A DNA stretch of 64,000 bases. Source: an uncultured Gammaproteobacteria bacterium (GTDB lineage: Bacteria; Patescibacteriota; Patescibacteriia; Buchananbacterales; UBA6539). Of this stretch, positions 9,001 through 56,623 are shown piece by piece. The notes under the pieces were generated by a model that did no database searches, had not been told where the DNA came from, and was given only the letters and a program-made list of their open reading frames with translations. The first letter of the stretch is position 1. Each line of letters begins with the position of its first letter. The translations under genes were made by a program, and so were the position numbers. The stretch is from NCBI GenBank assembly GCA_964535715.1, contig CAZHUO010000001.1:31696-95695 (forward strand), written 5' to 3'.

Positions 9001-10231
9001 GCTGCCATGCTTCAATAATGAAAGCTGCATTGGCTTTAAAGGCAAGTGCGATGAAAATCAAATATGCGTTACATCTGAAGTAAACAAATATATTCCGCAA
9101 ATCGCTTCTTTTGATACGGTATGCAGTAATGGTGCATATGCAATTTGGGTGCAAAATATCTGTAAGTATGATTTAGGGGAGTTTGATGAAACCGCTGAAT
9201 TTATTATGTCTTCAAGGCCATTTGTTAGACTTGAAGTTTGCAGTGGAGATAGTACTATGTCTTGTACAAGCGATGCTCAATGTATAGATGGTCATGGTGT
9301 CAGTCATGGATTTTGTGTCTTGGTTGCTACCTCTCCCCTCCCGACAATTGATGGAGAAACATGTACTGGTCAAATGCCTGGTTCTGCGAATGCTGGTTAT
9401 GTTGGAGAAATAAAAAATGTGCCATTAAAATTATGTTCAAATAATAAAAGTAAAACTTGTGACAATAGTAGTGATTGTGATGGTAATAGTTGTGATTTTA
9501 TAAAAGATTTAAGATTATGCGTCATTGAAGAGCAGCATTATTTATTGTATAAAGAAAATACTACTGATATTTTATGCACTGATCAAAATGTTACTGATTT
9601 AAAAAATTGCAAAGATCTTCCTGGCTATAATCCATGCAATGAGGGAGATAGTTGGGATAACAATAAATATTGTTATAAAGATTCGGTCCTGCCGGTTATT
9701 TCAGCTGACTGCAATGCTGGTTCCCCGGGAAAAGTCTGCTATTCCGAAACTAGCTGCAGTATTAGCGGCGGAGATTATTGCGCTGTTTATCCGACAATCA
9801 CTTATTTTTCAGTCAATGGAAAAGAAGGATCGTCAATTCAGATATACGGAACGGGAAGCATTGTTTTGAATTTCACCGCTGAAATCGATGAAGCCCAGCT
9901 GCCTATGACCGGTTATGCTATAAATTGGGGTGATGATACTAAAAGCTCGGTCAGCGGCCAGTTGCTTGCTGTTCATTCAAGCAAGGAAAATCCTTTTAAG
10001 GCAACTCATTTCTATTCCTACTGGGATTTATTGGCTTTAGATCAAGCCGGAAAGCTTTACTGCGGACAGGCCCCTGGTGATAAATGCTGCAAGCCCGAAG
10101 AATCAGTATGTGTTGTTGTTCCTATGGTTCGGGTTACTGATAATTGGGGCTGGTGCAGCGGGGGGCAGCACGGCTCAGCTTGCCAAAGCAGTTGGACTCG
10201 ATTCGGCGGCCAAATTGTTGTTATGCCGTAG
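2..10231 (+). CDS. Giant secreted cysteine-rich surface protein, 5'-partial. Repeated beta-sandwich CBM/galactose-binding-like modules alternate with Cys-rich linkers. One internal hydrophobic helix lies near residue 2750.
   Basis: Single open frame from the window edge (no stop from nt 2) to the stop at 10231. The tool start at 47 is TTG, so the true start is probably upstream. Very high Cys content with recurring C-x(4-8)-GC-x-E-F and AGCSEF-type motifs. At least four segments look like CBM4_9/laminin-G beta-sandwich units (e.g. SLRFYNSGTNVTAEI..., SLSVKLINGGAVGKEHDF..., HSIMSQSLKLKTSIG...KTYLISFWAKS). Hydrophobic segment LTIELVIVLIVVKLIGMILL. Confidence 0.8.
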   Translation, partial: GDSESDSSDRFSLPDLPGFNFGSTGENEIYTGDTGLGFYGGRQGAQSRFIDFLNAGISEVGQYDILTKFTSCPDSANPGPDECVILSGFRQAIEKEITLSQAIESGYIAGDKPFGSMQFNGQESLRSGFPYRSLLILRSHRVIPVTWEIAAAAINKFEKGGSRSLNELIGSFNDKSSIYYGLIDPDWVLKLPEHYCKAQGYGEKILYEEVTEGIDNNADGDFNDDSDVPPIRMVGRSQYCADFQSCLKETEDGACMWGYCVEERRIWDLDASSCPKEFNTCQTFQGRSGNVFSALQNTLDFNGCNINNVGCRWYCQHYNPISKVWDCTSESERTLNVCVESTVDSNGVAGCAVAANCDINEGQNRCFDQGNGIEVKISEPCSSSSKWWNTATEKCSILSSEAACTIPRSGIQCYTSGCEKFDNLLSNPSFEVPPQPRIPGVLTFDIAQNWKINEAYINYFILAGGDREQVYDGSNSLRFYNSGTNVTAEINSDGINLVPGKQYTFSGKIYNNLVSGKATITINGTSKEITERKEGWQSLDFEFLGAINTSINIQIGGTISSGGQVAGSIWFDNFKITESCSVNPIKLTLIGTMETDQSKLHLDRNASECPSDKAGCSEFIRTKVGLGTNLYRNSSFEIWPEGQLFPPGMTYGDQWETSNRIEKIYSGLEGSLSVKLINGGAVGKEHDFQSESIIGMKPNTAYRISLWAKSDEKVDSKWSVGVLYKRSNGSINHDDLTINDKKELSLNSNWQHYIFNAYGTDIGGSEFKISFNNASTDPNVPIYLDAIQIEEVPSSNSYFSEYKDYGKVNLSYIKKAPESLGCKGYTKERPSPYVIDGIVAKEQCQGENLVWKKACLGGENNGKNCNSISDCPSGSCVPRGCEGDKCCHEIDPAECYSYSPYCFADEVGCNSYNPTEGNISIQSVVARDDYCPAECIGYDSYKQSATYFESKEALDFFIPSTAVSCTAADAGCDEFTNLDEISQGGEAKEYYKYLRLCKKPQDADAYCKTFYAWQGSSETGYQLKTYVLSTANALSNEPKSTITDLEDWPSEWCSDKTLDANGLPNCCNGPDDLEKNPFCREFYDINGTIYYKIYQNTISCSDNCHPFRKTRLGENDSDAETNCKASNGSWDSANLVCIYQAIPGQGIACSSRAIGCREYRGNAGANIFTAFFEDFESGTESGWKIGQIQSEALSIAGHSIMSQSLKLKTSIGVLTDSAGNPINCNDLTLRSCDANNPQDYNCYDRAANACKAKDSDRSDICLVQVGEQYCSVLGNTIKPKKTYLISFWAKSASANIVQDLEIKFINNNDVSDVLTPQKINIQPDWDYYLFGPYKAENIIRADGAIDPSIAIDFASRTGEFYVDNLRIQEVKNYVYVNKGTWATPQSCDQNPFVENGPIRAPQFMLGCKQYLDISNLVHNLRSFNKLCREIAVGCEAMIDTNNSTSPFSETFNQNDIYDNGTDYTTDDDVDFSLTVPQDKLVYIVNRLAYQCEQPYKGCQILGLPLININNEVVGYNTVSKINNPDDYANSLCRNSEVSCEEFSSGNKFSYFKSPGQKTCEYRQIPNQSKFAWYKTGSISVNPDCPIKQPPLGTVHPKSGWVGLCPEQYNNCTQFVDSATKFGKNLIFNYDFGMDIDRDTGGIPDGWYQEAAAANVELFQKIKVQQGKLYIFGVTSNADPATVDPLLGYSPNPLLKDTDFKFEIRGCESISSFDHSLIEEKNCADKTTGNLVLPKAACQNDSDCGSNRCAKILAMPPEVYQNDDRTNETISGLRGEREYTGRFFSPFDQYCEIRIIASPEADFIAKVRKNLNKVSAREALVNYALSDTVDKMSCNGVADEKAGCVLFNDRSYVNYRLGEDDISYLAFDADISGRSSGNELINNGLPVMESNTSAYRVDSNIVLKTKPDRECEAWIYPNSFTNFSEEKVERNFSTSIITCNSMESDGSCSGFAFNNNKLGTCRIDSSTPPVSSCINDSDCSAGFKCFRQSYDYYNNPEQVKNLSGFSKPGYYFAKGGVCTAGQAAGASCIDDFQCALVAGSCDKFVFGYYPFSEMKQLGGLTISQSTDFEAGILKPYGWILDDLLPLNSEPPDFSKAEWKPGYAMLINNPVSAQQQGIDPFAPSGRAFVRVSGPFRIKSEEIEAFSSTEYFISGYLNTVNLAEGSGLISIRELDGDGNKIGSDKPLLRLQKGNGWSLLTNNFITESATARLEVILSNWNDNGGLHDGVSGDTYFDDVKIRPVLKAAGLEFDDTYIVPSCRIYPASDSLSCDYYTDKNYRLRGWLGYCLQPDPANASQCLLWWPVDLIEGGYAPEQPSNIPSPLYYCLGAVEDLYYLNKCLFENGELCSSVNSRPNSSETLPRIFSWEVPQDWKIQDWQIQNISAGAMIVDCNPPESGAPYCQTQTAYSRLVFNRHPLEENAWVNRDGIKAKLNYSSQGLLESIDFEVLGANCVCNNIDITFVIKNIWCRYLVQTVTLFGQNKAWFNRISEEGAKRFVIPGLGYLESADYLLFGSAVPPEPAGEPEAWNLSDDSWIRPLLVARPYFEMFEAPYQARAGTPYACVQGSAAFWGKPCSYPGESGVTNIIAWSQNSDNSKDPLEHFINYYGKESLMRLFARTYGSWEFQGYGVCRPDPSLETPPVPIEAICACPESECAKLDKDITYKACGKGICSYFDEGGRLIPDSSDEALVPDNIVKCETDQECLDSRSCENNVCKGTLGVGCTTHLDCPISFCIPTGQSCEVDLWDCISLKQLISDAATMVIQTFYTDSYLTIELVIVLIVVKLIGMILLSCGPKSCSNSSGCDIGEGTCISFISYLLLNWGISDSDDPNGLDWVINSLIAPILGTMTGDASDGSGNVIQNILNLIGLGESNETLFESDVGIFAFIGDIFGEQLGTVLGSVCSNTPFRCSGGKKQRCCWWSNCNPFTTSQSRCEAGPFAGKICSTASVDESGDQCPEDYICELKSETSSYIDVSGFDWKEPISSCPNNVRPLGYCEGGIYDKLPCFNNESCIGFKGKCDENQICVTSEVNKYIPQIASFDTVCSNGAYAIWVQNICKYDLGEFDETAEFIMSSRPFVRLEVCSGDSTMSCTSDAQCIDGHGVSHGFCVLVATSPLPTIDGETCTGQMPGSANAGYVGEIKNVPLKLCSNNKSKTCDNSSDCDGNSCDFIKDLRLCVIEEQHYLLYKENTTDILCTDQNVTDLKNCKDLPGYNPCNEGDSWDNNKYCYKDSVLPVISADCNAGSPGKVCYSETSCSISGGDYCAVYPTITYFSVNGKEGSSIQIYGTGSIVLNFTAEIDEAQLPMTGYAINWGDDTKSSVSGQLLAVHSSKENPFKATHFYSYWDLLALDQAGKLYCGQAPGDKCCKPEESVCVVVPMVRVTDNWGWCSGGQHGSACQSSWTRFGGQIVVMP

Positions 10232-10445: not shown

Positions 10446-13400
10446 ATGAAAATTCTCTATAAAAAATCAAAAAGCCTCTTCAGCTTAAAACTATTTGTTT
10501 TAGCTTTTGTTTTTGCCGGCTTTGCGGCTTTTATTCCTTTCAGCCTTTCTTTGGATTATTCGGCTGTTTCTTTTGTAAATATAAAAGATTCAATTCAGGG
10601 AAGCAGTAATGATATTTTCAGCTTCGAATTAAATGAAGCTTATGCCCAGGCTACACCAGCTGCTGCCGAAGCTAATAAGGATTACACGCCGTCAACTGTC
10701 GGCCGATTTGTCAGTGATGCAATCGGAAAATTGGTTTTGCTTATTGTCAGGGCTGAAGGCTGGATAATCACCAAGCTTGCTTATATTCTAATGGCGCTAA
10801 TGCGCTATAACGGCTTTGTGACATCAGCGGCCGTTTCAAAAGGCTGGACTTTGGTTCGGGATGTGTCAAACATGTTTTTTGCCCTGATTATTTTGGCAAT
10901 TGCCTTGGGCACGATTTTGAAAGTTGAGTCATATAATATTAAAAGGCTTTTGCCGAAAGTTCTGCTTATGGCAATATTGGTTAATTTCAGCCGGACAATC
11001 TGCGGGCTGATGATTGATTTTGCCCAAGTGATAATGATTACTTTTGCCGCGGCATTTGCCGGTTCGGGCGGATCAGGCGGCTCAAATATAGTTTCAATTT
11101 TTAAGCTCCAAGACCTTCTTTTTAGTCAAACAGAAGCAGAAGCAATTACAAACAAAGATGGTATTAAAGCTGACAATGTAATTATAACCGGAATTTTAAT
11201 TGTTGTTATGCTTGCCATTGCCGTTGTTGTGCTTTTAGTAATGACAGTTGTGATTTTAATGAGGATGATAATGCTTTGGATTCTTTTGGTTCTTTCGCCT
11301 TTGCCTTTTATCCTTTCGGCTTTTCCCCAGGGTGAAAAATACGCCCAGCAGTTTTGGCAGGAATTCAGCAAATATGTGATTGTCGGTCCGATAATGGCTT
11401 TTTTCCTTTGGCTTTCTTTTGCAGTTGCCGATCCCGCTTCAAACTATGATAAAGGTTTAATGAATGATGCAAGTGAATCAGTTAATGCCTCTACAAGCGG
11501 TGATTTATCAACTGATAATAGTGTTGTCTTTACCAGTATTGGTAATATTGAGTCTTTTTTGTCATTTGTAATCGGCATCGGCATGCTGATGGCTTCCTTG
11601 ATGGTTACCCAGCAGCTGGGCGTGGCGGGGGGGAGCTTTGCGGGAGCTGCTTCGGCAAAGATTAAGCAAACCGGGATTGGGGCTTTGAGATTTGGCGCTA
11701 ATACTGTAAAATTTGGCGCCAAACTGCCTTTTAAAGGTGCAAATTTGGCGGAAAAAACCTTATTTGGGTCAACCGGAATCGGCTTGAATCCGATGCGCGC
11801 TTACCGTGGATTTAAGGAAAGATATGCGTCATGGAGCGAAAGAATGGAAAGTGAAGGTGCAAACAAAGGCTCGCAAAAGGCAAAAAATCTTATTCTCAAA
11901 GAAGGAAAACGAAATATTGCAACCAGAGCTTTCGGCTACGCCGGTTTGGCAATGACTTCACCAAAAGATTTCAGCCAGAATTATTTGGGCTGGAGAGGAA
12001 TTAAAAGGGGATTTGGTACTATTTTTAAAGGAACAAGTATTGATGAAATGAAAGACTGGGAGAAGGAAAGAACAAGAAGAAAAGAAGAAATTGCCTTGCG
12101 ACAAAAACTCGGATTTATCGGTGATGTCACCGAGGCCGGCGAAAAACAGATTGTTTCTGATGGAGCTGAAAATTTAACCCAGCTTTTAAAAAGTTCAAAT
12201 GCAGCAACTGTTTCCGGGGCGCTTCATTTGACAGTTGATTATGATGATGCAACAAAATTTAATACGGTAGCTGATGTTTTTGATAGCATGAATGAAAAAA
12301 CCTTGGGTGATTTAAGAGATTATCTGCCCGAAGGCACTGATATTGAACTTAAAAGAGATAGTACAGGGAAAGCATTAGGCGGGCTTGATGATGAAACAAC
12401 TAGCAAACAAAAAGATGCTTTACTTTCGGCAATTGCCAAGCAACAGTCAGAAAAACTTATGAAAGAACATAATGAATGGTTTGATAATAATACTGTTGCG
12501 AGTTCAGTATTGGTAGACTCTGGATTTAAGACAACAAAAGGCAAACAATATTATGCAGAGGAAGAAACAAAAAGAAGTTCTGAACTCAGTCGGGTTAAAG
12601 CTGGGGGATTGTCAAATATTCAGGCAGAAGGCCGCCAAAAGCGCCTTGAAGATATTCAGCTGCAAATTGTATCAATACTTAAAAAAATTGATAAAGATGG
12701 AGATTCTAGAGGTGAATATCGAGCCAAAATAGATGAATTAGTTAAAGAAGGAACTGATTTAGGTGGTGTTGCAGTTGAAGATGATAAAATTAAAACCCGT
12801 CTAGGTATAAGTGGTGTATTTCATTTCGGTAAAAGTAATACTGATCGCAGCAGCCAGAATATTATACCCGTGATAACAAGATCAGCTGTATTAACCAAAG
12901 AAGAAAAAGAAGAAAATACTAAGAAGGACGATGCAAACGGTTTAAGTATTTTAGACAAACTTGATCGAGATTTAGCTTATTTTAGAAAAGAAAGATCTTT
13001 TGCTGAAGCGGATCCAAATACAAGAAGAATATTGCAAAAAAATATTAATAGCAGTGTAGAAAAGGACAGTAAAAAACTTATTGTTGAAGATCAGAAAAAA
13101 ATGAGCGAGTTTAAAATGGCGCCAATTCCCTATGAAGCTTTGACTCAAGCTCGGGCGGCGGAAAGAGACCAGCTTTCCAAACTTCCTCAAGCAATGGAAT
13201 GGACGGAAATTGAAAGCGAATTAAGGACTGCCATTCAAATGGGAAATAAATCGCGTGTCCGAGCCTTAATGATGAAAGCCGCCAATGACTATAATGACAA
13301 TGAAATCTGGAATGCCTGGGGCTACGGTGCAAATGCCAAGGGAATGAGAGATTTTGGTCAAGAAGTTTTGGTAAATAAATTGAAAATGAATGAACAGGAA

Positions 13401-13868
13401 ATGTTAAGTTTCATGAATGATATAGCTTATGTAAACGAAGATCGAAATCATTTTGAAACCGCCAGAATGGTGACAATGCATGGCGGACAAGCAAGGTGGT
13501 CAACTGAAGAAGAGCATGCCGCTTCAATTTCAAATGAAAATTTAAAGCAGGCAAGCCGCGGCTTTTTACAGAATACCAACCGGCTTGGTTTTGGCGGTGA
13601 AAAAGACGGCAAGTATGAAATAGCATTGTCCGGAAAACTGACTCTTGCCGGGTTGGGCGATGTTGAGCTGCAAAATCGTATTAACCGCGGTGAATTTAAT
13701 CCGAGTCTGCTTTCAAAAATCGCCTCTGACCTTACCGGCCTGGAAGATATGGTTAAGCGCGGCTGGATAAGCCGAAGGACAATGGAGATGATTGTTTCTC
13801 GGGCAGCAACCAAAAAAATCCAAGCCGAATATACTGATTTATTAAGAAAAGCAAAACAAAAATTTTAG
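10446..13868 (+). CDS. VirB6/TrbL-like polytopic membrane protein with a long charged C-terminal extension (type IV secretion-like inner-membrane component)
   Basis: N-terminal signal/TM, then about eight hydrophobic helices in the first ~450 aa (e.g. LLPKVLLMAILVNFSRTICGLMIDFAQVIMITFAAAF, VIITGILIVVMLAIAVVVLLVMTVVILMRMIMLWILLVL). A ~650-aa K/E-rich coiled-coil-like tail follows. It lies upstream of a VirB4 ATPase. The family assignment is inference from architecture and synteny. Confidence 0.55.
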   Translation: MKILYKKSKSLFSLKLFVLAFVFAGFAAFIPFSLSLDYSAVSFVNIKDSIQGSSNDIFSFELNEAYAQATPAAAEANKDYTPSTVGRFVSDAIGKLVLLIVRAEGWIITKLAYILMALMRYNGFVTSAAVSKGWTLVRDVSNMFFALIILAIALGTILKVESYNIKRLLPKVLLMAILVNFSRTICGLMIDFAQVIMITFAAAFAGSGGSGGSNIVSIFKLQDLLFSQTEAEAITNKDGIKADNVIITGILIVVMLAIAVVVLLVMTVVILMRMIMLWILLVLSPLPFILSAFPQGEKYAQQFWQEFSKYVIVGPIMAFFLWLSFAVADPASNYDKGLMNDASESVNASTSGDLSTDNSVVFTSIGNIESFLSFVIGIGMLMASLMVTQQLGVAGGSFAGAASAKIKQTGIGALRFGANTVKFGAKLPFKGANLAEKTLFGSTGIGLNPMRAYRGFKERYASWSERMESEGANKGSQKAKNLILKEGKRNIATRAFGYAGLAMTSPKDFSQNYLGWRGIKRGFGTIFKGTSIDEMKDWEKERTRRKEEIALRQKLGFIGDVTEAGEKQIVSDGAENLTQLLKSSNAATVSGALHLTVDYDDATKFNTVADVFDSMNEKTLGDLRDYLPEGTDIELKRDSTGKALGGLDDETTSKQKDALLSAIAKQQSEKLMKEHNEWFDNNTVASSVLVDSGFKTTKGKQYYAEEETKRSSELSRVKAGGLSNIQAEGRQKRLEDIQLQIVSILKKIDKDGDSRGEYRAKIDELVKEGTDLGGVAVEDDKIKTRLGISGVFHFGKSNTDRSSQNIIPVITRSAVLTKEEKEENTKKDDANGLSILDKLDRDLAYFRKERSFAEADPNTRRILQKNINSSVEKDSKKLIVEDQKKMSEFKMAPIPYEALTQARAAERDQLSKLPQAMEWTEIESELRTAIQMGNKSRVRALMMKAANDYNDNEIWNAWGYGANAKGMRDFGQEVLVNKLKMNEQEMLSFMNDIAYVNEDRNHFETARMVTMHGGQARWSTEEEHAASISNENLKQASRGFLQNTNRLGFGGEKDGKYEIALSGKLTLAGLGDVELQNRINRGEFNPSLLSKIASDLTGLEDMVKRGWISRRTMEMIVSRAATKKIQAEYTDLLRKAKQKF

Positions 13869-13880
13869 CAAATATTAATT

Positions 13881-15215
13881 ATGCAAATTAACGAAGAATT
13901 AATCCAGGAATTTGAAGACCATACAAAGGAAGTTCTGCAATACAATTTGGTAGAGCAAGCCAGGCTTTTTGTTGAAAAAATTTGGCCGGAAATTGTTGCT
14001 GATAAAAATTTTGAAAAAAATAATCCGTCAATTTATGTCAGATTGAAAAAGATATATAATTTAAATTTGATTTTGCAGCTTGGCCGCCTGCCGGAAAAAA
14101 CCATTTTTGATTTATTTGAAAACAGCATTCAGCTGTATTATTTGGAAATGATTGACTATGCTGATCTTTGGCAGCTAATCAGAGCGAAATTAGTCACAAT
14201 GTTTGACATTGATGAGAGAAATAATTTTAAAAAACAGCTATCGAAGCTACTTTTAAGAAATAAAAATTTAATTACTAAAATCGCTTTAGAGCGTGACGGA
14301 AAAGAACATGAGCCGTCAATTGACCAGTGGCTTATTGACTACACCAGTTTTGTTGGTATTAAAAGTGTTGATGCCGTCAAAATGAATGAATATTTTACAG
14401 TGAATAATAATTTCAAAAAACTTTCCGATGAGGATAAAAATATCGTCCGTCAGCTTATTATTTTATATGAAAGACTAAAAAAATCATCGGCTGATCCGGA
14501 AGGGCTGGAAGAAAAAGTTACCATATTTGAAGACGGCAAGCTGATGGTTTTTCGCGAGGGCAGGTTTGAGGATTTAGATCCGAGAATTTCTAAATTAATG
14601 AAAGATCTGAAAAAAGACGAAAAAACCGGTTTACTTGCCGAAAAAGAAGATTCCTCCGGTCTTTTAGCTGATTCCGAAGAGCAAGAAATTGGTTTTGCTG
14701 AAACCAAACAGGATTCAGCGCCTGAAGATCAGAAAGAAGTAATCAAAGCCTACCAAGGCGATTTAAAGAAGGAAAAAGCAATTTCCAAGCTGGAAGAAAA
14801 GCTGATTAATAAAATCAATAATGATGCCGATAAATTAAGGGCTGAATTTTTTACTGCGGTTCAATCTAAGGATGCTGATAAAACAATTGCAGTTTTATAT
14901 GTTTTAGCTAAAAAAAATGATCTGACAAAATTTTTAGAGCAAGACCAAAAGCTGAATAAATTCATTTTGGCAACCTGGGAAAAAAGATACGGCAAAGAGT
15001 TTGCTGCGGATTTTTCAAAAGATCCAGGCAATGTAAAATTCATCCGCTTATTTTTAAAATATATTTTGGAAGAACGGTTAAAAATTCCGACCAATGATGC
15101 AGCCAGGGTGGGAATCAGAATAGGCAATATTCTCATTGAGTTCGGCCATAAGGATTTTAATCAGATTGCTTATTTTGACATGAAAAATAAAAAGTTTGAA
15201 TGGTTTGAGGAGTAG
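13881..15215 (+). CDS. Hypothetical soluble alpha-helical protein (444 aa)
   Basis: Long ORF tightly coupled (12 nt) to the upstream gene. No recognisable catalytic motifs. Confidence 0.6.
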   Translation: MQINEELIQEFEDHTKEVLQYNLVEQARLFVEKIWPEIVADKNFEKNNPSIYVRLKKIYNLNLILQLGRLPEKTIFDLFENSIQLYYLEMIDYADLWQLIRAKLVTMFDIDERNNFKKQLSKLLLRNKNLITKIALERDGKEHEPSIDQWLIDYTSFVGIKSVDAVKMNEYFTVNNNFKKLSDEDKNIVRQLIILYERLKKSSADPEGLEEKVTIFEDGKLMVFREGRFEDLDPRISKLMKDLKKDEKTGLLAEKEDSSGLLADSEEQEIGFAETKQDSAPEDQKEVIKAYQGDLKKEKAISKLEEKLINKINNDADKLRAEFFTAVQSKDADKTIAVLYVLAKKNDLTKFLEQDQKLNKFILATWEKRYGKEFAADFSKDPGNVKFIRLFLKYILEERLKIPTNDAARVGIRIGNILIEFGHKDFNQIAYFDMKNKKFEWFEE

Positions 15216-15311
15216 GTAATTAGGATGGTAGATCGGTAGATTGGTAGATAGTAAAGACAAATATATTCATATATAATCAACATAGCGCTGATATTTATTA
15301 ATTATATAAAT

Positions 15312-15617
15312 ATGACGCGTTATCAATATTATACCTACATAATGACTAATAAATTAAATACGACGATTTATATTGGTGTAACTAATGATATTTATAATCG
15401 AGTTTATCAGCATAAGAAAAAATTGGTCGAAGGCTTCACTAGCAGGTATAATATTAATAAGCTGGTTTATTATGAGGAATATGATTATATTGAAGATGCA
15501 ATATATCGAGAAAAACAATTAAAGAATTGGCGCCGCCAATGGAAAATTAATTTAATAAATGAATTTAATCCTGAATGGAAAGATTTAAGCGATGATTGGT
15601 ATGATGAAAAGGATTAA
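15312..15617 (+). CDS. Small stand-alone GIY-YIG nuclease-domain protein
   Basis: YIMTNKLNTTIYIGVTNDIYNRVYQHK matches the GIY-(x10-11)-YIG motif and the downstream R/H/N residues. It is 101 aa, the size typical of free-standing GIY-YIG selfish genes. Confidence 0.8.
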   Translation: MTRYQYYTYIMTNKLNTTIYIGVTNDIYNRVYQHKKKLVEGFTSRYNINKLVYYEEYDYIEDAIYREKQLKNWRRQWKINLINEFNPEWKDLSDDWYDEKD

Positions 15618-16046
15618 TTGTCATCCTGAATTCATTACCTTTTTGTCATCCTGAATTCATTTCAGGATCTCGGAAAGTCTAGAAAGCAACACTTTGTCAT
15701 CCTGAATTCATTTCAGGATCCAGCAAATCCTAGAGACTCTGAAATAAATTCAGAGTGACAAGTCTAGAAAAAAAGCGCACCCTTGTCATCCTGAACTTGC
15801 CTGCCCGCCGGAGCAAAAGTGTAGGCGGGGTTCAGGATCCAGCAAAGTCTAGAAAGCAACACTTTGTCATCCTGAATTCATTTCAGGATCCAGCAAAGTC
15901 TAGAGACTCTGAAATAAATTCAGAGTGACAAGTCTAGAAAAAAAGCGCACCCTTGTCATCCTGAATTCATTACCTTTTTGTCATCCTGAACTTGGTTCAG
16001 GATCCAGCAAAGTCTAGAGACTTTGAAATAAATTCAGAGTGACAAA
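15618..16046. repeat. Array of palindromic hairpin repeat units (REP/MITE-like). About 2.5 copies of a ~170-bp composite unit.
   Basis: Recurrent ttgtcatcctgaa-N-ttcaggatc hairpins (8-bp stem, loops of 5 nt up to a 36-nt GC-rich loop) and gagactctgaaataaattcagagtgac hairpins. Nested tgacaag...cttgtca stems. The 125-bp segments 15676-15800 and 15846-15967 are near-identical. Confidence 0.8.
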
Positions 16047-16119
16047 TGAAGAAATAAAGTAAAGACAAATCTTAAAATTAATAACTAACAACAAAACTGG
16101 GGGTTAAATTGACAAAACT

Positions 16120-17295
16120 ATGCAAAAAGACAGCGAAAAAAATTATATTTTTACTTCGGAATCGGTAACCGAAGGCCATCCTGATAAAGTCTGTGATAAA
16201 ATTTCAGACTCTATTTTAGATGAACTATTGAAGCAGGATCCGAATTCTCATGCCGGAATTGAAACATTGGTGACTACCGGCATGGTGGTTGTAGCCGGTG
16301 AAATCAGGACAAAAGGCTACGTTGATATTGCTAATATTGCCCGTCAGGCAATTAAAGAAATCGGCTACGATGATCATTCATCAGGCTTTCATTGGCAGGA
16401 CTGCGGGGTAATGGTGGCAATTGACGAACAAAGTCCGGATATTGCCCAGGGAGTTGACGCCGGAAGAGGAAAATTTAAAAAGCAGGGAGCCGGCGACCAG
16501 GGCTTGATGTTTGGCTATGCCTGCAAGGAAACTCCGGAGCTTATGCCTTTGCCCATAATTTTAGCCCATAAAATTTGCCAAAGGCTTGCCCAGGTTCGAA
16601 AAAATAAAACCTTGCCATATCTTCGGCCTGACGGAAAGTCCGAAGTGGCGGTTGAATATGTAAACGGCAAGCCGAAAAGAATAAATACGGTTGTTGTTGC
16701 GGCCAGTCATAACGAAAATGTTTCAAGCAAAAAGCTGGAAAAAGACATTCTCAAGAAAGTTGTCAAGCCGATTTGCGGCAAATATATTGACAGTAAAACC
16801 AAAATTTTCATCAACGCCACGGGACGCTTTGTGAAATGCGGACCGCCGGCTGACACCGGGCTTACCGGCCGAAAAATTATCGTTGATACTTATGGCGGAT
16901 TCGGCCGTCATGGTGGCGGCTGTTTTTCAGGCAAAGATCCGTCAAAAGTTGACCGCTCAGCTTCATATATGGCACGCTATGTCGCAAAAAATATAGTTTC
17001 TGCCGGCTTAGCCGACCGCTGCGAAGTCGAGCTTGCTTATGTAATCGGCGTTGCCGAACCTATCAGCATTTTAGTGGAAAGTTTCGGCACGGGAAAAGTT
17101 TCTGATGAAAGAATTGTTGAGCTGATCAGGAAATTTTTTGACCTTACTCCGGCGGGAATAATTAAAAAATTAAAACTGCTTCGGCCGATTTATAAAAAAA
17201 CCGCCGCATACGGCCATTTTGGCAGAAAAGAACCAGATTTTACCTGGGAGAAAACCGATTTGGCACAAACATTGAGAAAAGCCGCCGGATTTTAA
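16120..17295 (+). CDS. metK: S-adenosylmethionine synthetase
   Basis: [21 protein letters not shown]-terminal signature. GAGDQG and a full-length bacterial MetK layout. Confidence 0.95.
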
Positions 17296-17305
17296 GCAAA
17301 ATAAA

Positions 17306-17460
17306 GGGTATTAACCGCGGAGAAAGTCGCTGACGCGTCAAAGGAGCGCTTTGGGGGTATTGACACTTGATGGCTCCTCGGTTCGGAAACAAAAAATTGT
17401 TTACTTTTTGTTTCTCTCTCCCTACGCCACTGTCGATCGAGATCGACGTGGCTTACGTCG
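17306..17460 (-). mobile_element. MITE-like structured repeat, copy a (inverted orientation)
   Basis: The reverse complement matches copies b, c and d (...gagagaaacaaaaagtaaacaa..ttttgtttccga.ccgaggagccatcaa..gtcaataccc...ccgcggttaataccc). Flanked by aataaa (17300-17305) and ttaataaaa (17461-17469). Confidence 0.6.
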
Positions 17461-17534
17461 TTAATAAAATATTTATTTGTCGATTATTGATATAAATGTT
17501 AAAATAAATCTAGGTAACTTAGGCCAAAGAATGC

Positions 17535-17611
17535 ATTGAAGCACAAAAACACTAAAGCACCGGAAAAAAATGTTTTGTAATTCTAGTGTTTTAATGCTTT
17601 TGTGCTTCAAT
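17535..17611. promoter_or_regulatory. Large palindrome immediately upstream of the 17622 gene
   Basis: Perfect 14-bp inverted arms attgaagcacaaaa (17535-17548) and ttttgtgcttcaat (17598-17611), with further partial complementarity (acacta/tagtgt) in the spacer. It ends 10 nt before the ATG. Confidence 0.4.
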
Positions 17612-17621
17612 CGATATTAAT

Positions 17622-18794
17622 ATGACAAATAATCAAGTCAAAACCGATGATTTTTTTACTCTACTGAAAGACGAGCGGAAAAACAGCGATCCTTTTGCAA
17701 ACGATGAAATAATTATTCTGGATAAAAAAGGCAATCTCAGCATTTTAAAAGACGGCAAGATTACCGATTTTGGGCCATTAAAAAAGAAAATTGAAAATGA
17801 GCCTAAAAAAGTTGTGGCGGAAATAAAACAAACGCCCCAAATTGACTTTCAGGCGGAGATAGATGATATCATCGAAAAATCCGGCATTCATTTTTCTGAT
17901 CAAGAAACGGAAAGGCGTTTTCGCAGCCTGATTTTATCAAGGCTTAAAGGTGCCAGAAATCAGATTCAAACTCGTGAAATAATGCTTGATTCACCGTCAT
18001 CGGGCGGTTTGGGCTTTAAGCCGGATGAAGCCGAAAGGGTATTATCTGCAATCTCCAAGCAGGCTCAAGATATGGATAAAATGTTCAGGGACGGCATGAG
18101 TTCCGGATATTTTTCCGATTTGCAGCTGCAGGTTGATTCTATTTTAAAAAATGCGGATTCAGAGCTGAAAAAACCAAAGATTGATTTGGCCAAAGCAAAG
18201 GAAACTGATAAAATTGAAGATAAAGGAGGACTTATTTTACCGGCTGAAAATTTAATTAAGCCAAAAGCCAACATTAACATTAAGCCCAAAGAAGACGTAT
18301 CGCCTAAAACAGCTGTTAATAAAGAGAAGAAAAATTATTTAAAACCCGGCGATTTTTTGGCAAAAAAATCTGAGTCCAAGCCATTGTTTAAGGCTCCTGT
18401 TGATTTATCGCCTGTAAATTTTCAATCATTATCAAAGCCCAAGATTGAAGATGTTAAATTTCGCTCAAGGCTTACAGGTCCGATTGAAGAAATCAGGTCA
18501 ATGACTTTAGTTGATTTTAGGAGATTGGGAAAAGACGCCAAAGATGCAATAGGAAAAATTGTGGAAAAAATACAAATTTTGGAGGACGAATCATTTCCAA
18601 AAAGAATTCAGGCAATCAGGGCTTGGAAAGAAAGCCCGGTAAATCAGCTTTATTTGGAACTTGGCGCTGAAAGTATGGAAAAGAAAATGCCGATTTTGGA
18701 AGTAATCAGCCAAAGGCAGAAAAATGGCATTGATACTTTAACCGAACAGGAAATTGAAGAAATCATGGAATTTAATAAAAAATTAAGATACTAG
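17622..18794 (+). CDS. Hypothetical K/E-rich protein (390 aa) inside the T4SS-like cluster
   Basis: Long ORF in the same orientation as, and directly upstream of, the VirB3-like and VirB4 genes. No recognisable motifs. Confidence 0.6.
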   Translation: MTNNQVKTDDFFTLLKDERKNSDPFANDEIIILDKKGNLSILKDGKITDFGPLKKKIENEPKKVVAEIKQTPQIDFQAEIDDIIEKSGIHFSDQETERRFRSLILSRLKGARNQIQTREIMLDSPSSGGLGFKPDEAERVLSAISKQAQDMDKMFRDGMSSGYFSDLQLQVDSILKNADSELKKPKIDLAKAKETDKIEDKGGLILPAENLIKPKANINIKPKEDVSPKTAVNKEKKNYLKPGDFLAKKSESKPLFKAPVDLSPVNFQSLSKPKIEDVKFRSRLTGPIEEIRSMTLVDFRRLGKDAKDAIGKIVEKIQILEDESFPKRIQAIRAWKESPVNQLYLELGAESMEKKMPILEVISQRQKNGIDTLTEQEIEEIMEFNKKLRY

Positions 18795-18820
18795 CCTGAC
18801 AGTTAAATGTTAACTGTTAA

Positions 18821-19294
18821 ATGTTAACTGTTATATTAATGCAACAATTTGTAATTCCACAATTTATCGATGTTGAGGACAAAGTAATAGGACCGATTAC
18901 CGTTCGGCAGTTTGTAATATTGCTTATCGGAGGCGGACTTTGTTTTATTGAATATAAGCTGACTGATCTGGCATTATTTCTTGTAGAGGCGGCATTTACC
19001 GCACTTATTGCATGTGTTTTGGCGTTTGTAAAAATCAACGGCCGGCCGATTCATTATTTTATTCTTAATGCTTTCCAGACTTTGTTTCGGCCGAAACTGC
19101 GCGTTTGGCAGAAGAAATTTACAGCAACGGAGCTAAAAAGTTATTGGAAAGAAGAAAAAAGCATGCTGCCGCCGGAGATAAGAACAAAAAATAAAGTTAG
19201 GGCTTCAAGGCTGGCTGAAATGGCTCTTATTGTTGATACCGGCGGCGTATATCAAGGGGAAGATCTGCCTGGCGTAAAACAGGAATTATATTAA
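18821..19294 (+). CDS. Small two-TM membrane protein, VirB3-like by position
   Basis: Two hydrophobic helices (FVILLIGGGLCFIEY; LALFLVEAAFTALIACVLAFV). It sits directly upstream of the VirB4 region, as virB3 does. An alternative start is the ATG at 18838 (MQQFVIPQF...). Confidence 0.5.
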   Translation: MLTVILMQQFVIPQFIDVEDKVIGPITVRQFVILLIGGGLCFIEYKLTDLALFLVEAAFTALIACVLAFVKINGRPIHYFILNAFQTLFRPKLRVWQKKFTATELKSYWKEEKSMLPPEIRTKNKVRASRLAEMALIVDTGGVYQGEDLPGVKQELY

Positions 19295-19307
19295 AATATA
19301 AATTTGA

Positions 19308-19988
19308 ATGAAATCAAAAAAATTAGCCAACAAAAAAGTAAGTGCTTCAACCAGGGAACAGATTGATATTGCGGAAATTAAGGAAGATGTTGTAATAATG
19401 AAAGATGGCACATTAAGAGCGGTACTTTTAGTTTCGAGCATTAATTTTGCCTTAAAATCAGAAGATGAGCAAAATGCGATAATTTCCGCATACGTTAGTT
19501 TTTTAAATTATTTGGAATTTCCGGTTCAAATCGTGATTCAGTCGCGTAAATTGGATATTGACGGCTATTTGGATCGTCTGAAAAAAATTGAAAAAGAGCA
19601 AACCAATGAACTTTTAAGGATGCAAATTGCGGAATATTATCAATATATAAAAGAGCTTGTTGAAATCGGGGATATCATGAGTAAAAGATTTTATGTTGTT
19701 GTGCCGTATAATCCAATGTCGGACAAGCAGGAATCATGGATTAAAAAATTTTTGAGCATATTTTCTGCCGCTAAGGAAGTCAAGCTAAACCAGGAAAGTT
19801 TTCAAAAAAAACGGCATGTTTTGTTTCAGAGAGTTGAAGGAATCGTCACAAGTTTGGCCAGCATGAGCATAAAGTCGGTTGTGCTTGATACCCAAAGCCT
19901 GATTGAACTTTATTATAATACATATAATCCCGACATTTATACAAAAGAAAAAATGGTTGAAATTAATAAGCTTAGAGTAGAAGGATAA
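19308..19988 (+). CDS. Hypothetical 226-aa protein adjacent to VirB4. Possibly a separated VirB4 N-terminal-like module.
   Basis: ORF ending 8 nt before the VirB4 start, in a different frame. DGTLRAVLLVSSINFALKSEDEQNAIISAYVSFLNYL loosely resembles VirB4/TrbE N-terminal segments. Confidence 0.55.
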   Translation: MKSKKLANKKVSASTREQIDIAEIKEDVVIMKDGTLRAVLLVSSINFALKSEDEQNAIISAYVSFLNYLEFPVQIVIQSRKLDIDGYLDRLKKIEKEQTNELLRMQIAEYYQYIKELVEIGDIMSKRFYVVVPYNPMSDKQESWIKKFLSIFSAAKEVKLNQESFQKKRHVLFQRVEGIVTSLASMSIKSVVLDTQSLIELYYNTYNPDIYTKEKMVEINKLRVEG

Positions 19989-19996
19989 AATAATTT

Positions 19997-21892
19997 ATGG
20001 CAATTTCTCCGCAAGAAATAATTAAAGAGGAAAAACTTAAAGCCCTCAAAGAAAAAGGCCTGATTGATTCTGTAAAAACCAAAAAGGAAGAAGTGGCAGA
20101 TGTAAAAGAGCAAAAAGTTCTGCTCGAAGAGGAAAGAATCTACCGGGAAGGGATAGTTTCAATTAAGGATTTAATTGCTCCATCATCGATGGAAGTTACC
20201 CCGACTTTCATAAAGCTCGGTACCCAGTTTGTCAGGACTATTTTTGCAGTCAGTTATCCGCGCTATATTGCCGTTGGCTGGTTTGCGCCGATTATCAATG
20301 TCAGTGCAGTTTTGGATATAGCAATGTTTTTTTATCCCTTAAGCGCCCATATAATTTTAAAACAATTAAGGAATAAGGTCGGCGCCTTGGAAGCGCAAAT
20401 TATTGCCGACCGGGAAAAAGGAGCGCCGCGCGACCCAATCAGGGAAACAGCTCTCAGAGACATAGAAAAATTAAGAGATGACCTTACTCAGGGAATTGAA
20501 CATTTTTTTCAATTTGGACTTTATGTGACAATATATACGGAATCCAAAGAAAAATTGGAAAATTTAACCAATGATATAGAGGCGATGTTTGGCATGCGTT
20601 TGGTTATTTCAAAAAAAGTTTTATATCAATCCGAGCAGGGATTCAATTCGACTCTGCCTTTGGGCAATGACGAGCTGATGATCAGCTTTAATATGAATTC
20701 TTCGCCAATTGCATCTTCGTTTCCTTTCATATCTTCAGAGCTTACTTCGGATGAAGGAATTTTATACGGGATAAACCGCCACAACAACAGCTTGATTTTA
20801 TTTAATCGATTTTCTTTGCAAAATGCCAATACGGTTGTATTTGCGACATCCGGCGCCGGAAAAAGCTATGCAATTAAGCTTGAAGTTTTAAGGACTATGA
20901 TGTTTGGAACGGACATTATTGTCATTGATCCGGAGCGGGAATACAAGCATCTTTGCGATGCTGTCGGCGGAGCTTATGTCAATATTTCATTAAGTTCTGA
21001 GGCAAAAGTAAATCCTTTTGATCTGCCCAGGGCGATTGGAGAGCAAAAAACTTCCGATGTCATCCGCGGAGCGGTCATATCGCTTAAGGGTTTGATGAGG
21101 CTGATGCTTGGCCAGTTAAGCCATCAGGAAGATTCTTTAGTTGACCGGGCGCTTTTGGAAACTTATGCTAAAAAAGACATTACCGGAGATTCTGACTTGT
21201 CAAAAGTTGAATCGCCGATAATGCAGGATTTTCAAGATATTCTTGAGGGAATGGAAGGCGGATCAGATTTGGCTTTACGGCTTAAAAAATATACAAAAGG
21301 AACTTTTTCGGGTCTTTTTAATAATCCGACAAATGTTGATATGAAAAATCAGCTGGTTATTTTTTCGGTACGCGACCTGGAAGATGAGCTTCGGCCGATT
21401 GCAATTTATAATATTGTCAATTATATTTGGAATGTGGTTCGTTCCGAACTTAAAAAGAGGATTTTAATAATTGATGAGGCATGGTGGCTGATGCAGAATG
21501 AAGATTCGGCAAAATTCATATATGCATTGGTTAAGCGCTGCAGAAAATATTATCTTGGAGTCACCAATATTACTCAGGACGTTAATGACTTTTTGCTTTC
21601 TCCGTACGGCCAGGCAATTGTCAATAATTCGGCATTGCAGCTTCTAATGCGCCAGTCTTCGGCATCTATTGATCTTGTTCAAAAAACTTTTTTACTGACC
21701 GAAGGAGAAAAATATCTGCTTTTGGAATGCGGAGTTGGGGAGGGCATATTTTTTGCCGGTGACAAGCATGCGGCCATTAAAGTAGTTTCTTCTTATACCG
21801 AAGACCAGCTGATTACTTCCGACCCCAGGCAAATTTTGGAAATTGAACAGTCTAAAAGAGAATTTGAAGAATCAAGATCTGAAAGAGAATAG
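19997..21892 (+). CDS. virB4: VirB4/TrbE/CagE-family type IV secretion ATPase
   Basis: Walker A FATSGAGKSY and Walker B LIIDEAWWLM. N-terminal motif RTIFAVSYPRYIAVGWFAPI...SAHI typical of the CagE_TrbE_VirB domain. At 631 aa it is the size of Gram-positive-type VirB4. Confidence 0.85.
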   Translation: MAISPQEIIKEEKLKALKEKGLIDSVKTKKEEVADVKEQKVLLEEERIYREGIVSIKDLIAPSSMEVTPTFIKLGTQFVRTIFAVSYPRYIAVGWFAPIINVSAVLDIAMFFYPLSAHIILKQLRNKVGALEAQIIADREKGAPRDPIRETALRDIEKLRDDLTQGIEHFFQFGLYVTIYTESKEKLENLTNDIEAMFGMRLVISKKVLYQSEQGFNSTLPLGNDELMISFNMNSSPIASSFPFISSELTSDEGILYGINRHNNSLILFNRFSLQNANTVVFATSGAGKSYAIKLEVLRTMMFGTDIIVIDPEREYKHLCDAVGGAYVNISLSSEAKVNPFDLPRAIGEQKTSDVIRGAVISLKGLMRLMLGQLSHQEDSLVDRALLETYAKKDITGDSDLSKVESPIMQDFQDILEGMEGGSDLALRLKKYTKGTFSGLFNNPTNVDMKNQLVIFSVRDLEDELRPIAIYNIVNYIWNVVRSELKKRILIIDEAWWLMQNEDSAKFIYALVKRCRKYYLGVTNITQDVNDFLLSPYGQAIVNNSALQLLMRQSSASIDLVQKTFLLTEGEKYLLLECGVGEGIFFAGDKHAAIKVVSSYTEDQLITSDPRQILEIEQSKREFEESRSERE

Positions 21893-21918
21893 ATATTAAA
21901 AAATTAATAATAAAAAAT

Positions 21919-22530
21919 ATGAATATTAATTTTGGAGAGATTTCAAAAAGAAACAAAATAATTATTTTGGTTTCAGTGGCAGTAATTATTTTGATTATTG
22001 CCTTATTGATTTGGTTTTTTTCAAAAAGTAAGTCTGAGCCGCCAATAGCCGGTTTGGTAAATACTAATCAAGGAGTGAGCGGCCCTTCAGAATTGCCCAG
22101 CGCTTCTTTGGTTATTCCTGAATATGATGCTTCTTTGGTAAAAGATAAAGAACTTGATGCCGGCCTAAGGGCGATTGCCTTTACATTTTCCGAACGCTTT
22201 GGCAGCTATTCAAATGAAGGAAATTTTAACAACGTCGAGTCGGTAAACAGCATTATGACGGCTAGAATGAGGGCGTGGGTGACTAACTATCTCATACAAC
22301 AGGGTGAAAGGCAATCAGACGCCGTTTATTACGGCATTACTACCAAGGCTCTTTCAGTAAATATAAGTAAATTCGATGAAAATTCCGGGCGAGCCGAAGT
22401 AATTGTTACGACTCAAAGACAAGAAAATCTGGGCAGCACGGAAAATGCCAAAGTCTATTATCAAGATTTAAAATTAGATTTGGTAAACAGCGAACAAGGC
22501 TGGAAGGTTGATTCGGCTTCGTGGCTTTAG
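21919..22530 (+). CDS. Bitopic membrane protein (N-terminal TM plus ~170-aa extracytoplasmic domain). VirB8-like by architecture.
   Basis: IIILVSVAVIILIIALLIWFF anchor followed by a soluble domain. It is immediately downstream of virB4. Confidence 0.45.
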   Translation: MNINFGEISKRNKIIILVSVAVIILIIALLIWFFSKSKSEPPIAGLVNTNQGVSGPSELPSASLVIPEYDASLVKDKELDAGLRAIAFTFSERFGSYSNEGNFNNVESVNSIMTARMRAWVTNYLIQQGERQSDAVYYGITTKALSVNISKFDENSGRAEVIVTTQRQENLGSTENAKVYYQDLKLDLVNSEQGWKVDSASWL

Positions 22531-22603
22531 GGTTTATAGGCATAGTAAATCAACATAGCGTATCTAAAGTTGGCAAATTTAAAGCCGACAAACATTAGCT
22601 GCT

Positions 22604-23269
22604 ATGTTTGATTTTAAAAATTACATTATTGATTTGCTTTTTCCTATCGAATGCATTGGCTGCAATAAAGAAGGCAGATGGATTTGTGATAATTGCATAA
22701 ACGAAATAAAAATTAACTCGGAAATTATTGAGCTGAAAGGAAAAAATAATTATCTTTCCGGCTTACTGGTCGCATCAGACTATAATCAGAAATTGATATG
22801 CAATGCATTGCATTTATTCAAATATAATTTTGCTTATTCTTTAGGAAATGATTTGGCGGAAATATTATTAAAGTATTTAAAATCAATTTTAATAAGAGAA
22901 AATTTTGATAAATTCGACATGGTAATTCCAGTTCCTTTGTCAAAAAAAAGAAGGCTTTGGAGAGGTTTCAATCAGTCAGAAATTTTAGCAGTCAAAGTCT
23001 GTCACGAATTCGGCTGGTTGCTTTCATCGGATACATTGGGCCGCAAGATTAATAATGTTCCCCAAGTCGGCCTAAACGCCAAAGAAAGACGCGAAAATGT
23101 CAGGGATATATTTTATTTAAAAAGCGATAATTTGCTGTATAATCGAAATATACTATTGATAGATGATGTTTTTACAACCGGGGCGACAATGCAGGAATGT
23201 GCCAAAATATTAAAAATGGGAGGGGCAAATTCCGTTTGGGGTCTGGCATTGGCAAAAAACCAGGCTTGA
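22604..23269 (+). CDS. comFC: Competence protein ComFC (double zinc-ribbon plus phosphoribosyltransferase fold)
   Basis: N-terminal CxxC...CxxC (CIGCNKEGRWICDNC) and a C-terminal PRTase motif LLIDDVFTTGATM. Confidence 0.8.
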   Translation: MFDFKNYIIDLLFPIECIGCNKEGRWICDNCINEIKINSEIIELKGKNNYLSGLLVASDYNQKLICNALHLFKYNFAYSLGNDLAEILLKYLKSILIRENFDKFDMVIPVPLSKKRRLWRGFNQSEILAVKVCHEFGWLLSSDTLGRKINNVPQVGLNAKERRENVRDIFYLKSDNLLYNRNILLIDDVFTTGATMQECAKILKMGGANSVWGLALAKNQA

Positions 23270-23487
23270 TAATTTAATGGCTTTATGCTAAGATTTACTA
23301 GTTAAAATAATCAGGATTAATCGTTAACTGCTCATTTTAAATTGTAAATTGTTAACTTGCCTATAAGCAAGCTGTTAATTGTTAACCTGCCTACCGTCTT
23401 GTTGCCGAGTGCCGGCAGGCAGTTAACTGTTAATTGTTTCAGCCAGAGGCTGATTCGCCTATGGCGAAAACTGTCAACTGTTATTAT

Positions 23488-23963
<476 letters not shown>

Positions 23964-23980: not shown

Positions 23981-24065
23981 GACTACGCTCCTCACTTTGT
24001 TCGGAGCTTCGTCTGACAGGCTAGATAATATCAACATAGCGCGCTTAATAAATAATTTTTGCGCT

Positions 24066-25211: not shown

Positions 25212-25236
25212 CTACCATTATTTGTAAATATCGGAA

Positions 25237-27306: not shown

Positions 27307-27329
27307 TTTATAATTTTTTAGTATAATTT

Positions 27330-27387
27330 CTACAAGCTACAAGCTACAAGCTACAAGCTACAAGCTACAAGCTACAAGCTACAAGCT
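27330..27387. repeat. Heptanucleotide microsatellite (CTACAAG)x8
   Basis: Eight perfect tandem units between convergent recG and mpg. The reverse complement CTTGTAG supplies the TAG stop of mpg. Confidence 0.9.
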
Positions 27388-27921: not shown

Positions 27922-27945
27922 TACCCTCAGAGTGAGTATTTATGG

Positions 27946-38733: not shown

Positions 38734-38792
38734 TTAATACTTATTGGAAAATCGGATAATGTGACTTTTAATGAAATTTATTTAAGTATTTA

Positions 38793-41801: not shown

Positions 41802-41816
41802 TTAATATTAAAAATT

Positions 41817-42911: not shown

Positions 42912-42912
42912 A

Positions 42913-56621: not shown

Positions 56622-56623
56622 TT

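Follow-up and report, generated by a model that had tools for sequence, protein, structure and literature searches.

We analyzed a 64-kb stretch of bacterial DNA (hereafter, the window) that holds a cluster of type IV secretion system (T4SS) genes, organized as a run of open reading frames (ORFs) on the plus strand at positions 10446-23269. ORFs of at least 100 amino acids (aa) in the window were scanned against Pfam, and NCBIfam was applied to those of the cluster. A preliminary description of this DNA had placed VirB6, VirB3, VirB4 (with its Walker motifs) and bitopic VirB8-like genes, together with ComFC, on one strand, and Pfam and NCBIfam matches, topology, and fold comparison recovered every one of them there. 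The surroundings are chromosomal, encoding RecG, methylpurine glycosylase (MPG), RadA, Clp, HtpX, LemA, LigA, and a type IV pilus locus, and the base composition of the window reveals no island or anomaly.

Judging by its VirB4 homologues, the DNA comes from a Buchananbacteria-like member of class ABY1. These homologues number in the thousands; we read the source names of the best 120, which were 74-100% identical to the window protein, and the named sources were Patescibacteria, Buchananbacteria, Parcubacteria, or metagenome-assembled genomes labeled “bacterium”. The preliminary description had likened the gene combination to candidate phyla radiation (CPR) genomes and those of the Saccharibacteria type; the first attribution holds, and the second gives way to ABY1.

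Translocon genes and orphan proteins of the cluster

The encoded set is a minimal single-membrane translocon, consisting of a VirB6 channel, a PrgI/VirB3 protein, a split VirB4 motor, and a VirB8-fold scaffold, interspersed with two orphan soluble proteins:

10446..13868, plus strand: extended VirB6/TrbL-like polytopic membrane protein, 1140 aa (Pfam TrbL, topology, position)
13881..15215, plus strand: o444, orphan soluble protein, directly after VirB6 in most relatives
17622..18794, plus strand: o390, orphan soluble protein of two helical domains, a conserved T4SS-associated family
18821..19294, plus strand: PrgI/VirB3-like protein, 157 aa (Pfam PrgI, 38.2 bits)
19308..19988, plus strand: TrsD-like protein, a detached VirB4 N-terminal part (NCBIfam, Pfam PF26593, hhalign)
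19997..21892, plus strand: VirB4 ATPase of the CD1110/MPF-FATA type, 631 aa (Pfam and NCBIfam)
21919..22530, plus strand: bitopic VirB8-like protein with a transmembrane (TM) helix, a linker, and an NTF2-like domain (structure and context)

The VirB4 ORF matched the Pfam families P-loop_TraG (101 bits), AAA_10, and DUF87, and scored 350 bits, with a cut-off of 325, against the NCBIfam family “VirB4-like conjugal transfer ATPase, CD1110 family”. It has both Walker motifs, A (TSGAGKS) and B (ILIIDEAWW). The preliminary description had allowed that this ORF might belong to another P-loop family; the profiles gave the VirB4 type. Identity to plasmid-borne VirB4 proteins reached at most 34.5%, the best ones coming from Bacillota and Actinomycetota.

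Directly upstream of the motor, ORF 19308-19988 corresponds to positions 91-268 of the 894-position NCBIfam VirB4_plasma model (E 1.5e-9), whereas the VirB4 ATPase ORF aligns with positions 258-889 of that model. Since the two ORFs match consecutive parts of one VirB4 model, the first is the detached N-terminal portion of VirB4. It also matches the TrsD family (E 1.9e-7), carries a precomputed Pfam match to PF26593 (TraC-like), and aligned by hhalign with the gene upstream of the closest Bacillota VirB4 at a probability of 99.7%; its family profile returned nothing useful from PDB sequences. In nearly all of 79 relatives, the TrsD-like protein is encoded by a separate gene of 221-251 aa beside a VirB4 of 621-690 aa. 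We considered whether the pair might be a frameshifted or broken VirB4 and rejected this possibility, as the split is kept in 79 of 80 genomes and also in the Bacillota relative. One of the three internal hypothetical genes of the preliminary description is thereby accounted for; the other two, o444 and o390, stand as conserved orphans.

The VirB6 ORF scored 26.7 bits against the Pfam TrbL/VirB6 family (cut-off 25.9) over aa 145-330 only, so that TrbL, the identity on which the preliminary description depended, was returned marginally. About six hydrophobic segments precede a C-terminal tail of about 750 aa that is hydrophilic and charged and resembles a coiled coil. Its homologues span 790-1570 aa, and TrbL is the sole recurrent Pfam family among 38 of them (10/38). 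When the family profile was compared with PDB sequences, only coiled-coil proteins were matched, through the tail, and these were judged to be noise. The PrgI protein has two predicted TM segments (aa 22-41 and 47-73).

The profile searches suggested in the preliminary description matched the TrbL, PrgI, VirB4, and ComF families; ORF 21919-22530 had no Pfam match at the sequence level. A fold search, suggested for this ORF and for o390, was productive for the former: the protein is bitopic, its C-terminal domain has an NTF2-like fold that most resembles VirB8 or DotI, and its gene lies inside the T4SS cluster. We therefore consider it a VirB8-fold protein, an assignment that is structural and contextual.

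The orphans o390 and o444 have no TM segments and are unrelated to each other (hhalign probability 1.9%); both are conserved, lineage-specific parts of the T4SS block. No match to o444 was obtained in Pfam, NCBIfam, or PDB, even with a 28-sequence profile, and a Pfam scan of 28 of its homologues found no recurrent domain. The median gap between VirB6 and o444 is 15 nucleotides (nt). For o390, two helical domains (aa 76-178 and 287-389) were predicted with confidence, with a disordered linker between them, and the fold search returned no significant structural neighbor and no DNA-binding fold. The family is large, with 3,008 representative clusters (at 50% identity) at E <= 0.001 and 2,007 at E <= 1e-30, and a Pfam scan of 42 long homologues again found no recurrent domain. 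Its conserved motif, GGLG(L/F)xxxxA, loosely resembles a helix-hairpin-helix. We did not adopt it as a DNA-binding motif, as it is accompanied only by a sub-threshold RuvA_C match (E 0.001) and by no fold match. Downstream of metK, a long, near-perfect hairpin (17530-17612; RNA dG -32 kcal/mol, z -4.6) stops 10 nt short of the start codon of o390; it may act as a terminator or attenuator or be a repeat element.

Conservation across ABY1 and missing conjugation parts

The following genes flank or interrupt the translocon cluster:

47..10231, plus strand: giant Cys-rich protein of >3,394 aa, its ORF open at the left edge of the window
15250..16090, plus strand: GIY-YIG cassette, not part of the T4SS (gene at 15312-15617, repeats at 15618-16080)
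16120..17295, plus strand: metK, S-adenosylmethionine (SAM) synthetase (three MetK Pfam domains)
22604..23269, plus strand: ComFC, a ComF-family phosphoribosyltransferase-like competence protein (TIGR00201, E 3e-32, full length)
25237..29286, mixed strands: RecG (plus), MPG (minus), and RadA (minus) (Pfam)
40626-57496: type IV pilus locus with PilM, PilN, PilO, PilB, PilT, PilC, pilins, and PilD (Pfam), 17 kb downstream of the cluster, as the preliminary description had it

For comparison, a genome scan provided 80 loci from Buchanan-, Falkow-, Kerfeld-, and Magasanikbacteria, which we take to be constituents of class ABY1, and the presence of each gene was determined by tblastn of the window proteins onto these loci. 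VirB4 identity across these ABY1 genomes is about 70-91%. The genes follow one order: the giant protein, VirB6, o444, metK in some lineages, o390, PrgI, the TrsD-like protein, VirB4, and the VirB8-like protein, and after it ComFC in some lineages, tRNA-Ser, DUF5673, tRNA-Arg, RecG, MPG, and RadA. The core genes lie close together, the median gaps being 10-42 nt. Since the same order recurs in 80 independent genomes, the association lies far beyond chance. The numbers of loci with a match (n = 80) were:

VirB4: 80
TrsD-like: 79
PrgI: 77
o390: 74
VirB8-like: 71
VirB6: 47
o444: 40
ComFC: 40
RecG: 40
RadA: 31
metK: 15
GIY-YIG at the window's site: 2

Twenty-eight loci hold all genes needed to compare rates with the adjoining repair genes, and in these the median identity to the window was 76% for VirB4, 59% for the TrsD-like protein, and 53% for both RecG and RadA. 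Given 76% versus 53%, the VirB4 motor evolves more slowly than its repair neighbors, and the core is under stronger purifying selection than the adjoining RecG and RadA.

The giant protein contains CBM_4_9 domains (Pfam) and a single hydrophobic segment near aa 2750; no in-frame stop precedes it, and no PDB sequence matched it. Its C-terminal part was matched upstream of VirB6 in 17 loci, and a long Cys-rich ORF running to the locus edge directly upstream of VirB6 was seen in about 26 of 41 relatives. It is a candidate accessory of the T4SS, as surface adhesin or substrate, whose membership in the system we infer. In 22 relatives, a membrane-anchored DsbA-like thioredoxin is encoded near the T4SS (for example, L028:12549-13280), and none was seen in the cluster of the window; such an enzyme fits the oxidation need of a Cys-rich giant surface protein.

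Consistent with the preliminary description, the window ORFs gave no Pfam match to a relaxase, a VirD4/TcpA/FtsK-type coupling protein, or an integrase. The Pfam scan likewise found no homologue of VirB7, VirB9, VirB10, VirB2, or comEC in the window and no match to T4SS_pilin/TrbC; a VirB2-like small hydrophobic ORF was also sought in the intergenic gaps, and none was present. No att-like boundaries were seen around the locus. The view that this is not an ordinary conjugative element is thus upheld by the chromosomal housekeeping context and by the lack of relaxase, coupling protein, and integrase in the window. An integrated mobile element was considered in light of the tRNA genes at 23488 and 25138 and was set aside, given the missing integrase and the conserved synteny.

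To extend this analysis to the relatives, unassigned ORFs within 10 kb on either side of virB4 in the 80 loci were clustered into recurrent families, and a set of these was scanned. A Walker-A screen of these ORFs uncovered no coupling-protein-like ATPase, the only unassigned Walker-A ORFs of at least 400 aa being Clp and a KAP NTPase, and no relaxase was found among the recurrent neighbor families scanned. The scanned families were the DsbA-like thioredoxin (22 loci), 23S-IVP, PPDK_N, Clp, and a pilin-hydrolase family (25 loci). The last comprises 37 ORFs in 25 of the 80 relatives, all within 10 kb of virB4 and often paired (for example, L052:16237-17451 and L076:18224-19279); in two scanned representatives, a T4SS_pilin/TrbC (VirB2-like) domain is fused to a VanY/M15 peptidase or a phage-type lysozyme. 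These proteins have no match in the window. In the source genome they are either encoded beyond the window or missing, and this is the main caveat to the statement that the locus has no VirB2.

Relation to known systems and proposed function

The locus is a copy of the published relaxase-less, chromosomal T4SS of the Patescibacteria clade, in its ABY1 layout. According to Quinonero-Coronel et al. (2025, Microb Genom, PMC12102498), Patescibacteria VirB4 proteins form a monophyletic clade related to MPF-FATA, with genes for PrgI, VirB6, and a TrsD-like protein homologous to the VirB4 N-terminus near virB4. The same paper reports that the ABY1 locus holds comF, recG, and radA, so that the combination was already on record. 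Together with Wang et al. (2023, Cell, PMC10633639), it describes a chromosomal system without relaxase, built of VirB4 with a TrsD-like protein, PrgI/VirB3, and VirB6, and with a monoderm-type component set devoid of VirB7, VirB9, and VirB10; the ABY1 subtype has the comF, recG, and radA neighborhood and a VirB8 homologue (PMC12102498). In the window, we found the VirB4 grouping (by identity), the TrsD-like gene, VirB3/PrgI with a marginal VirB6, and a chromosomal location without relaxase. A 2025 review (PMC12857230) speaks of a T4SS with a novel function and notes “extended VirB6” proteins.

Several features set the window apart. The Saccharibacteria cluster includes an array of VirB2-like pilins and peptidase/lysozyme genes, which the window lacks, whereas metK and the GIY-YIG cassette lie inside the window's cluster, unlike in the Patescibacteria-clade systems as published. 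VirB8 homologues are portrayed as rare and almost restricted to ABY1, with about 50 in total detected by hidden Markov models (PMC12102498), whereas the VirB8 fold is near-universal in the ABY1 loci analyzed here (71/80). Within the parts of the published T4SS accounts available to us, we did not meet a near-universal ABY1 VirB8-fold protein, o390, o444, or the giant Cys-rich gene.

Monoderm conjugative MPF-FATA systems (pCF10 Prg, pIP501 Tra, pGO1 Trs, and CTn2/CD1110) share with the window a VirB4 of the CD1110 family. The window differs from them in having no relaxase, PcfC/TcpA-type coupling protein, VirB1-like hydrolase, PrgB-type adhesin, or mobile-element context, and the low identity to plasmid VirB4 proteins noted above applies here as well. 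The ComB system of Helicobacter pylori and the crenarchaeal Ced system resemble the locus in combining a VirB4-family ATPase and a polytopic membrane partner with no relaxase or coupling protein, and in having DNA-processing genes nearby; Ced also cooperates with type IV pili. At the sequence level, the window belongs to neither. ComB itself has a diderm VirB7, VirB9, and VirB10 core and a VirB2 pilin, not found in the window, and Ced has CedA, CedA1, and CedA2. In the window, the CedB model scores 47 bits (cut-off 700) and the CedD model 18 bits.

In the plasmid collection, the closest non-CPR VirB4 (34.5%) is encoded on an 898-kb replicon of Pontibacillus sp. ALD_SL1 (NZ_CP062975). Its cluster is likewise relaxase-less and split in the same way, a TrsD-like gene preceding a VirB4 of about 620 aa, and the replicon is classified as non-mobilizable by MOB-suite. 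It differs in having a pilin-like gene (Mbov_0395 family), a 1,050-aa DD-metalloendopeptidase, and adjoining flagellar genes, and the relationship to its VirB6-like protein is weak (hhalign probability 61%). This locus (344316-370073) also holds a 779-aa membrane protein and a 116-aa protein. It may represent a non-conjugative monoderm T4SS outside CPR.

We estimate at roughly 60% the probability that the locus is a vertically inherited chromosomal Patescibacteria T4SS, derived from the MPF-FATA conjugation machinery of monoderms, that handles a non-conjugative substrate at host contact. A VirB4 hexamer docked on VirB3, VirB6, and VirB8 would power translocation of this substrate across the envelope, at a contact site with a host cell established by the type IV pili. 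The substrate could be protein effectors moving out or host macromolecules moving in. Because they are cytoplasmic and tightly linked, o390 and o444 would be the foremost candidates for factors that replace the coupling protein by recruiting substrates or by regulation. The T4SS would serve a host-dependent lifestyle, by analogy with Saccharibacteria, in which the homologous cluster of Southlakia epibionticum (SEML1_0006-0019) is essential for epibiotic growth (PMC10633639).

Several considerations count against this proposal. No substrate, effector, or signal turned up. We know of no cultured ABY1 organism, and the epibiotic lifestyle is extrapolated from Saccharibacteria. The VirB6 identity combines a marginal Pfam score (26.7 versus 25.9) with topology and position. 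A coupling protein, relaxase, VirB1-like hydrolase, and VirB2-like pilins could be encoded beyond the window. Finally, a protein-secretion model leaves the ComFC, RecG, and RadA neighborhood unexplained.

That neighborhood makes a DNA-import machine like Ced or ComB a tentative possibility, although one that we consider unlikely. Following pilus contact, a channel of VirB4, VirB6, VirB3, and VirB8 would pull DNA from a neighbor or from the medium, and ComFC, RadA, and RecG would process the single strand as it enters, for recombination or for salvage of nucleotides. Import systems need no relaxase or coupling protein, and the window contains the complete type IV pilus locus that a Ced-like process would call for, Ced import requiring pili according to PMC12102498, whose authors also suggest “functional coordination” of the T4SS with comF, recG, and radA. 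In 35 loci, ComFC comes immediately after the VirB8-like gene, and the median gap of 41 nt is comparable to those within the T4SS, although CPR genomes are so compact that such small distances mean little. ComFC is missing from this slot in 29 loci, roughly half of the ABY1 loci whose downstream sequence is long enough, and the leader motif of ComFC, common to unrelated GIY-YIG genes (see below), suggests separate transcription. Among the 42 loci with a full flank, 37 have RecG or RadA no more than 10 kb downstream of VirB4, even where the block is inverted. The helix-hairpin-helix-like motif of o390 and its weak RuvA_C match would suit a DNA substrate, against which stands the fold search without a DNA-binding fold. 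The CedB score adds no similarity to Ced beyond the P-loop. In S. epibionticum, furthermore, the T4SS is essential but comEC, comF, and dprA can be dispensed with, and it is ComEC on which transformation depends (PMC10633639). The DNA-uptake reading of the preliminary description is a hypothesis that gains from the conserved gene neighborhood and loses from the S. epibionticum genetics, which speak against an essential role that depends on ComF. A more specific variant, in which the ABY1 T4SS has been repurposed as a contact-dependent, Ced-like channel importing DNA from the host with o390 as the cytoplasmic receptor for DNA or substrate replacing the coupling protein, strikes us as improbable.

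We regard as very unlikely a working conjugation or mobilization system whose relaxase, oriT, and coupling protein are located elsewhere in the genome or are too divergent. VirB4 does exceed the cut-off of a family named for conjugal transfer, our scan covers 64 kb of the source genome, and coupling-protein homologues are far from virB4 in many genomes (5,713 homologues in 2,918 Patescibacteria genomes; PMC12102498). Yet the same paper counts relaxases in only 103 Patescibacteria genomes, rarely near virB4, and reports that the coupling-protein homologue of S. epibionticum is non-essential while other T4SS genes are essential. The locus is moreover fixed in the chromosome, its housekeeping synteny persists over the diversity of a class, and neither an integrase nor att-like boundaries were seen; its sequence conservation, which exceeds that of RecG and RadA, would be unusual for genes of a mobile element. 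As for a decaying remnant of an integrated conjugative element, devoid of current function, the lack of relaxase, coupling protein, hydrolase, and pilin in the window might point that way, as might the selfish GIY-YIG cassette and the housekeeping gene inside the cluster, but the conservation data effectively refute it, with core ORFs in nearly all 80 genomes, mostly complete and of near-constant length, intact VirB4 motifs in the window, VirB4 71-91% identical across the class, and an essential Saccharibacteria homologue (PMC10633639).

The window thus offers a clean and complete ABY1 example and sharpens the parts list of the system, adding a VirB8 backed by structure, a VirB4 whose split is stable, two conserved soluble proteins that lack annotation, and a giant Cys-rich protein that is usually adjacent. 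To our knowledge, the Patescibacteria T4SS is the only T4SS essential for the growth of its owner. Among the new parts, o390, o444, and the giant protein are candidates for the missing substrate-recognition and adhesion functions, and, through their conserved link to the T4SS, ComFC, RecG, and RadA make import versus export a testable hypothesis. The concept itself is little extended, the system and its link to comF, recG, and radA having been published in 2025 (PMC12102498).

Insertions, repeats, and the wider window

The preliminary description took metK and the GIY-YIG cassette together as signs of recent rearrangement, and the two turned out to differ. Fifteen relatives, with VirB4 identity down to 74%, carry metK at the same slot; metK is therefore not a recent insertion, and on this distribution its position is an old, lineage-wide arrangement of the Buchananbacteria-like lineage. 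A search for a SAM riboswitch upstream of metK and for other RNA families returned only tRNAs.

The GIY-YIG cassette, on the other hand, looks like a genuine and comparatively recent insertion, because it is flanked by a direct repeat and only two of the 80 relatives (L001 and L003) are occupied at this site. The gene itself has a clear GIY-YIG domain (Pfam, E 6e-17), and the 13-nt direct repeat AGTAAAGACAAAT, at 15250 and 16058, brackets the cassette. Behind the gene lie three to four tandem units of about 66-135 nt with the palindrome TTGTCATCCTGAATTCATTTCAGGATC, forming repeat families D1 and D2.

The 12-mer ATCAACATAGCG occurs exactly at 15276, 22549, 23627, and 24030 on the plus strand, four copies compared with 0.18 expected. 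The copies are located 35-55 nt upstream of the start codons of three GIY-YIG genes and of ComFC (55 nt in the latter case), each after a -10-like A/T-rich box, and the motif probably serves these genes as a common promoter or leader, or else is a sequence that accompanies GIY-YIG genes. Since this leader is common to ComFC and the three GIY-YIG genes, ComFC may have a promoter of its own. A general scan detected 51 promoter-like sites (43 expected) and 23 terminator-like sites (14 expected) and was uninformative.

Downstream of ComFC, tRNA-Ser(GCT) is found at 23488-23577 and tRNA-Arg(GCG) at 25138-25212. Two further GIY-YIG genes or fragments (23357-23917 and 23997-24308) are situated between tRNA-Ser and DUF5673; the first, as listed, has a spurious N-terminus that overlaps tRNA-Ser, the true gene starting near 23660. 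Beyond RadA, the minus strand encodes a 424-aa protein (30634-31908) whose long N-terminus is repetitive and of low complexity, with abundant Q, N, E, and K, and whose C-terminal membrane domain contains Cys; the protein is kept after RadA in the closest relatives. Immediately upstream of the pilus locus, at 36445-40610, are genes for a YadA-head-repeat protein of 762 aa and for a Cys-rich protein of 605 aa that has no Pfam match; both are possible adhesins.

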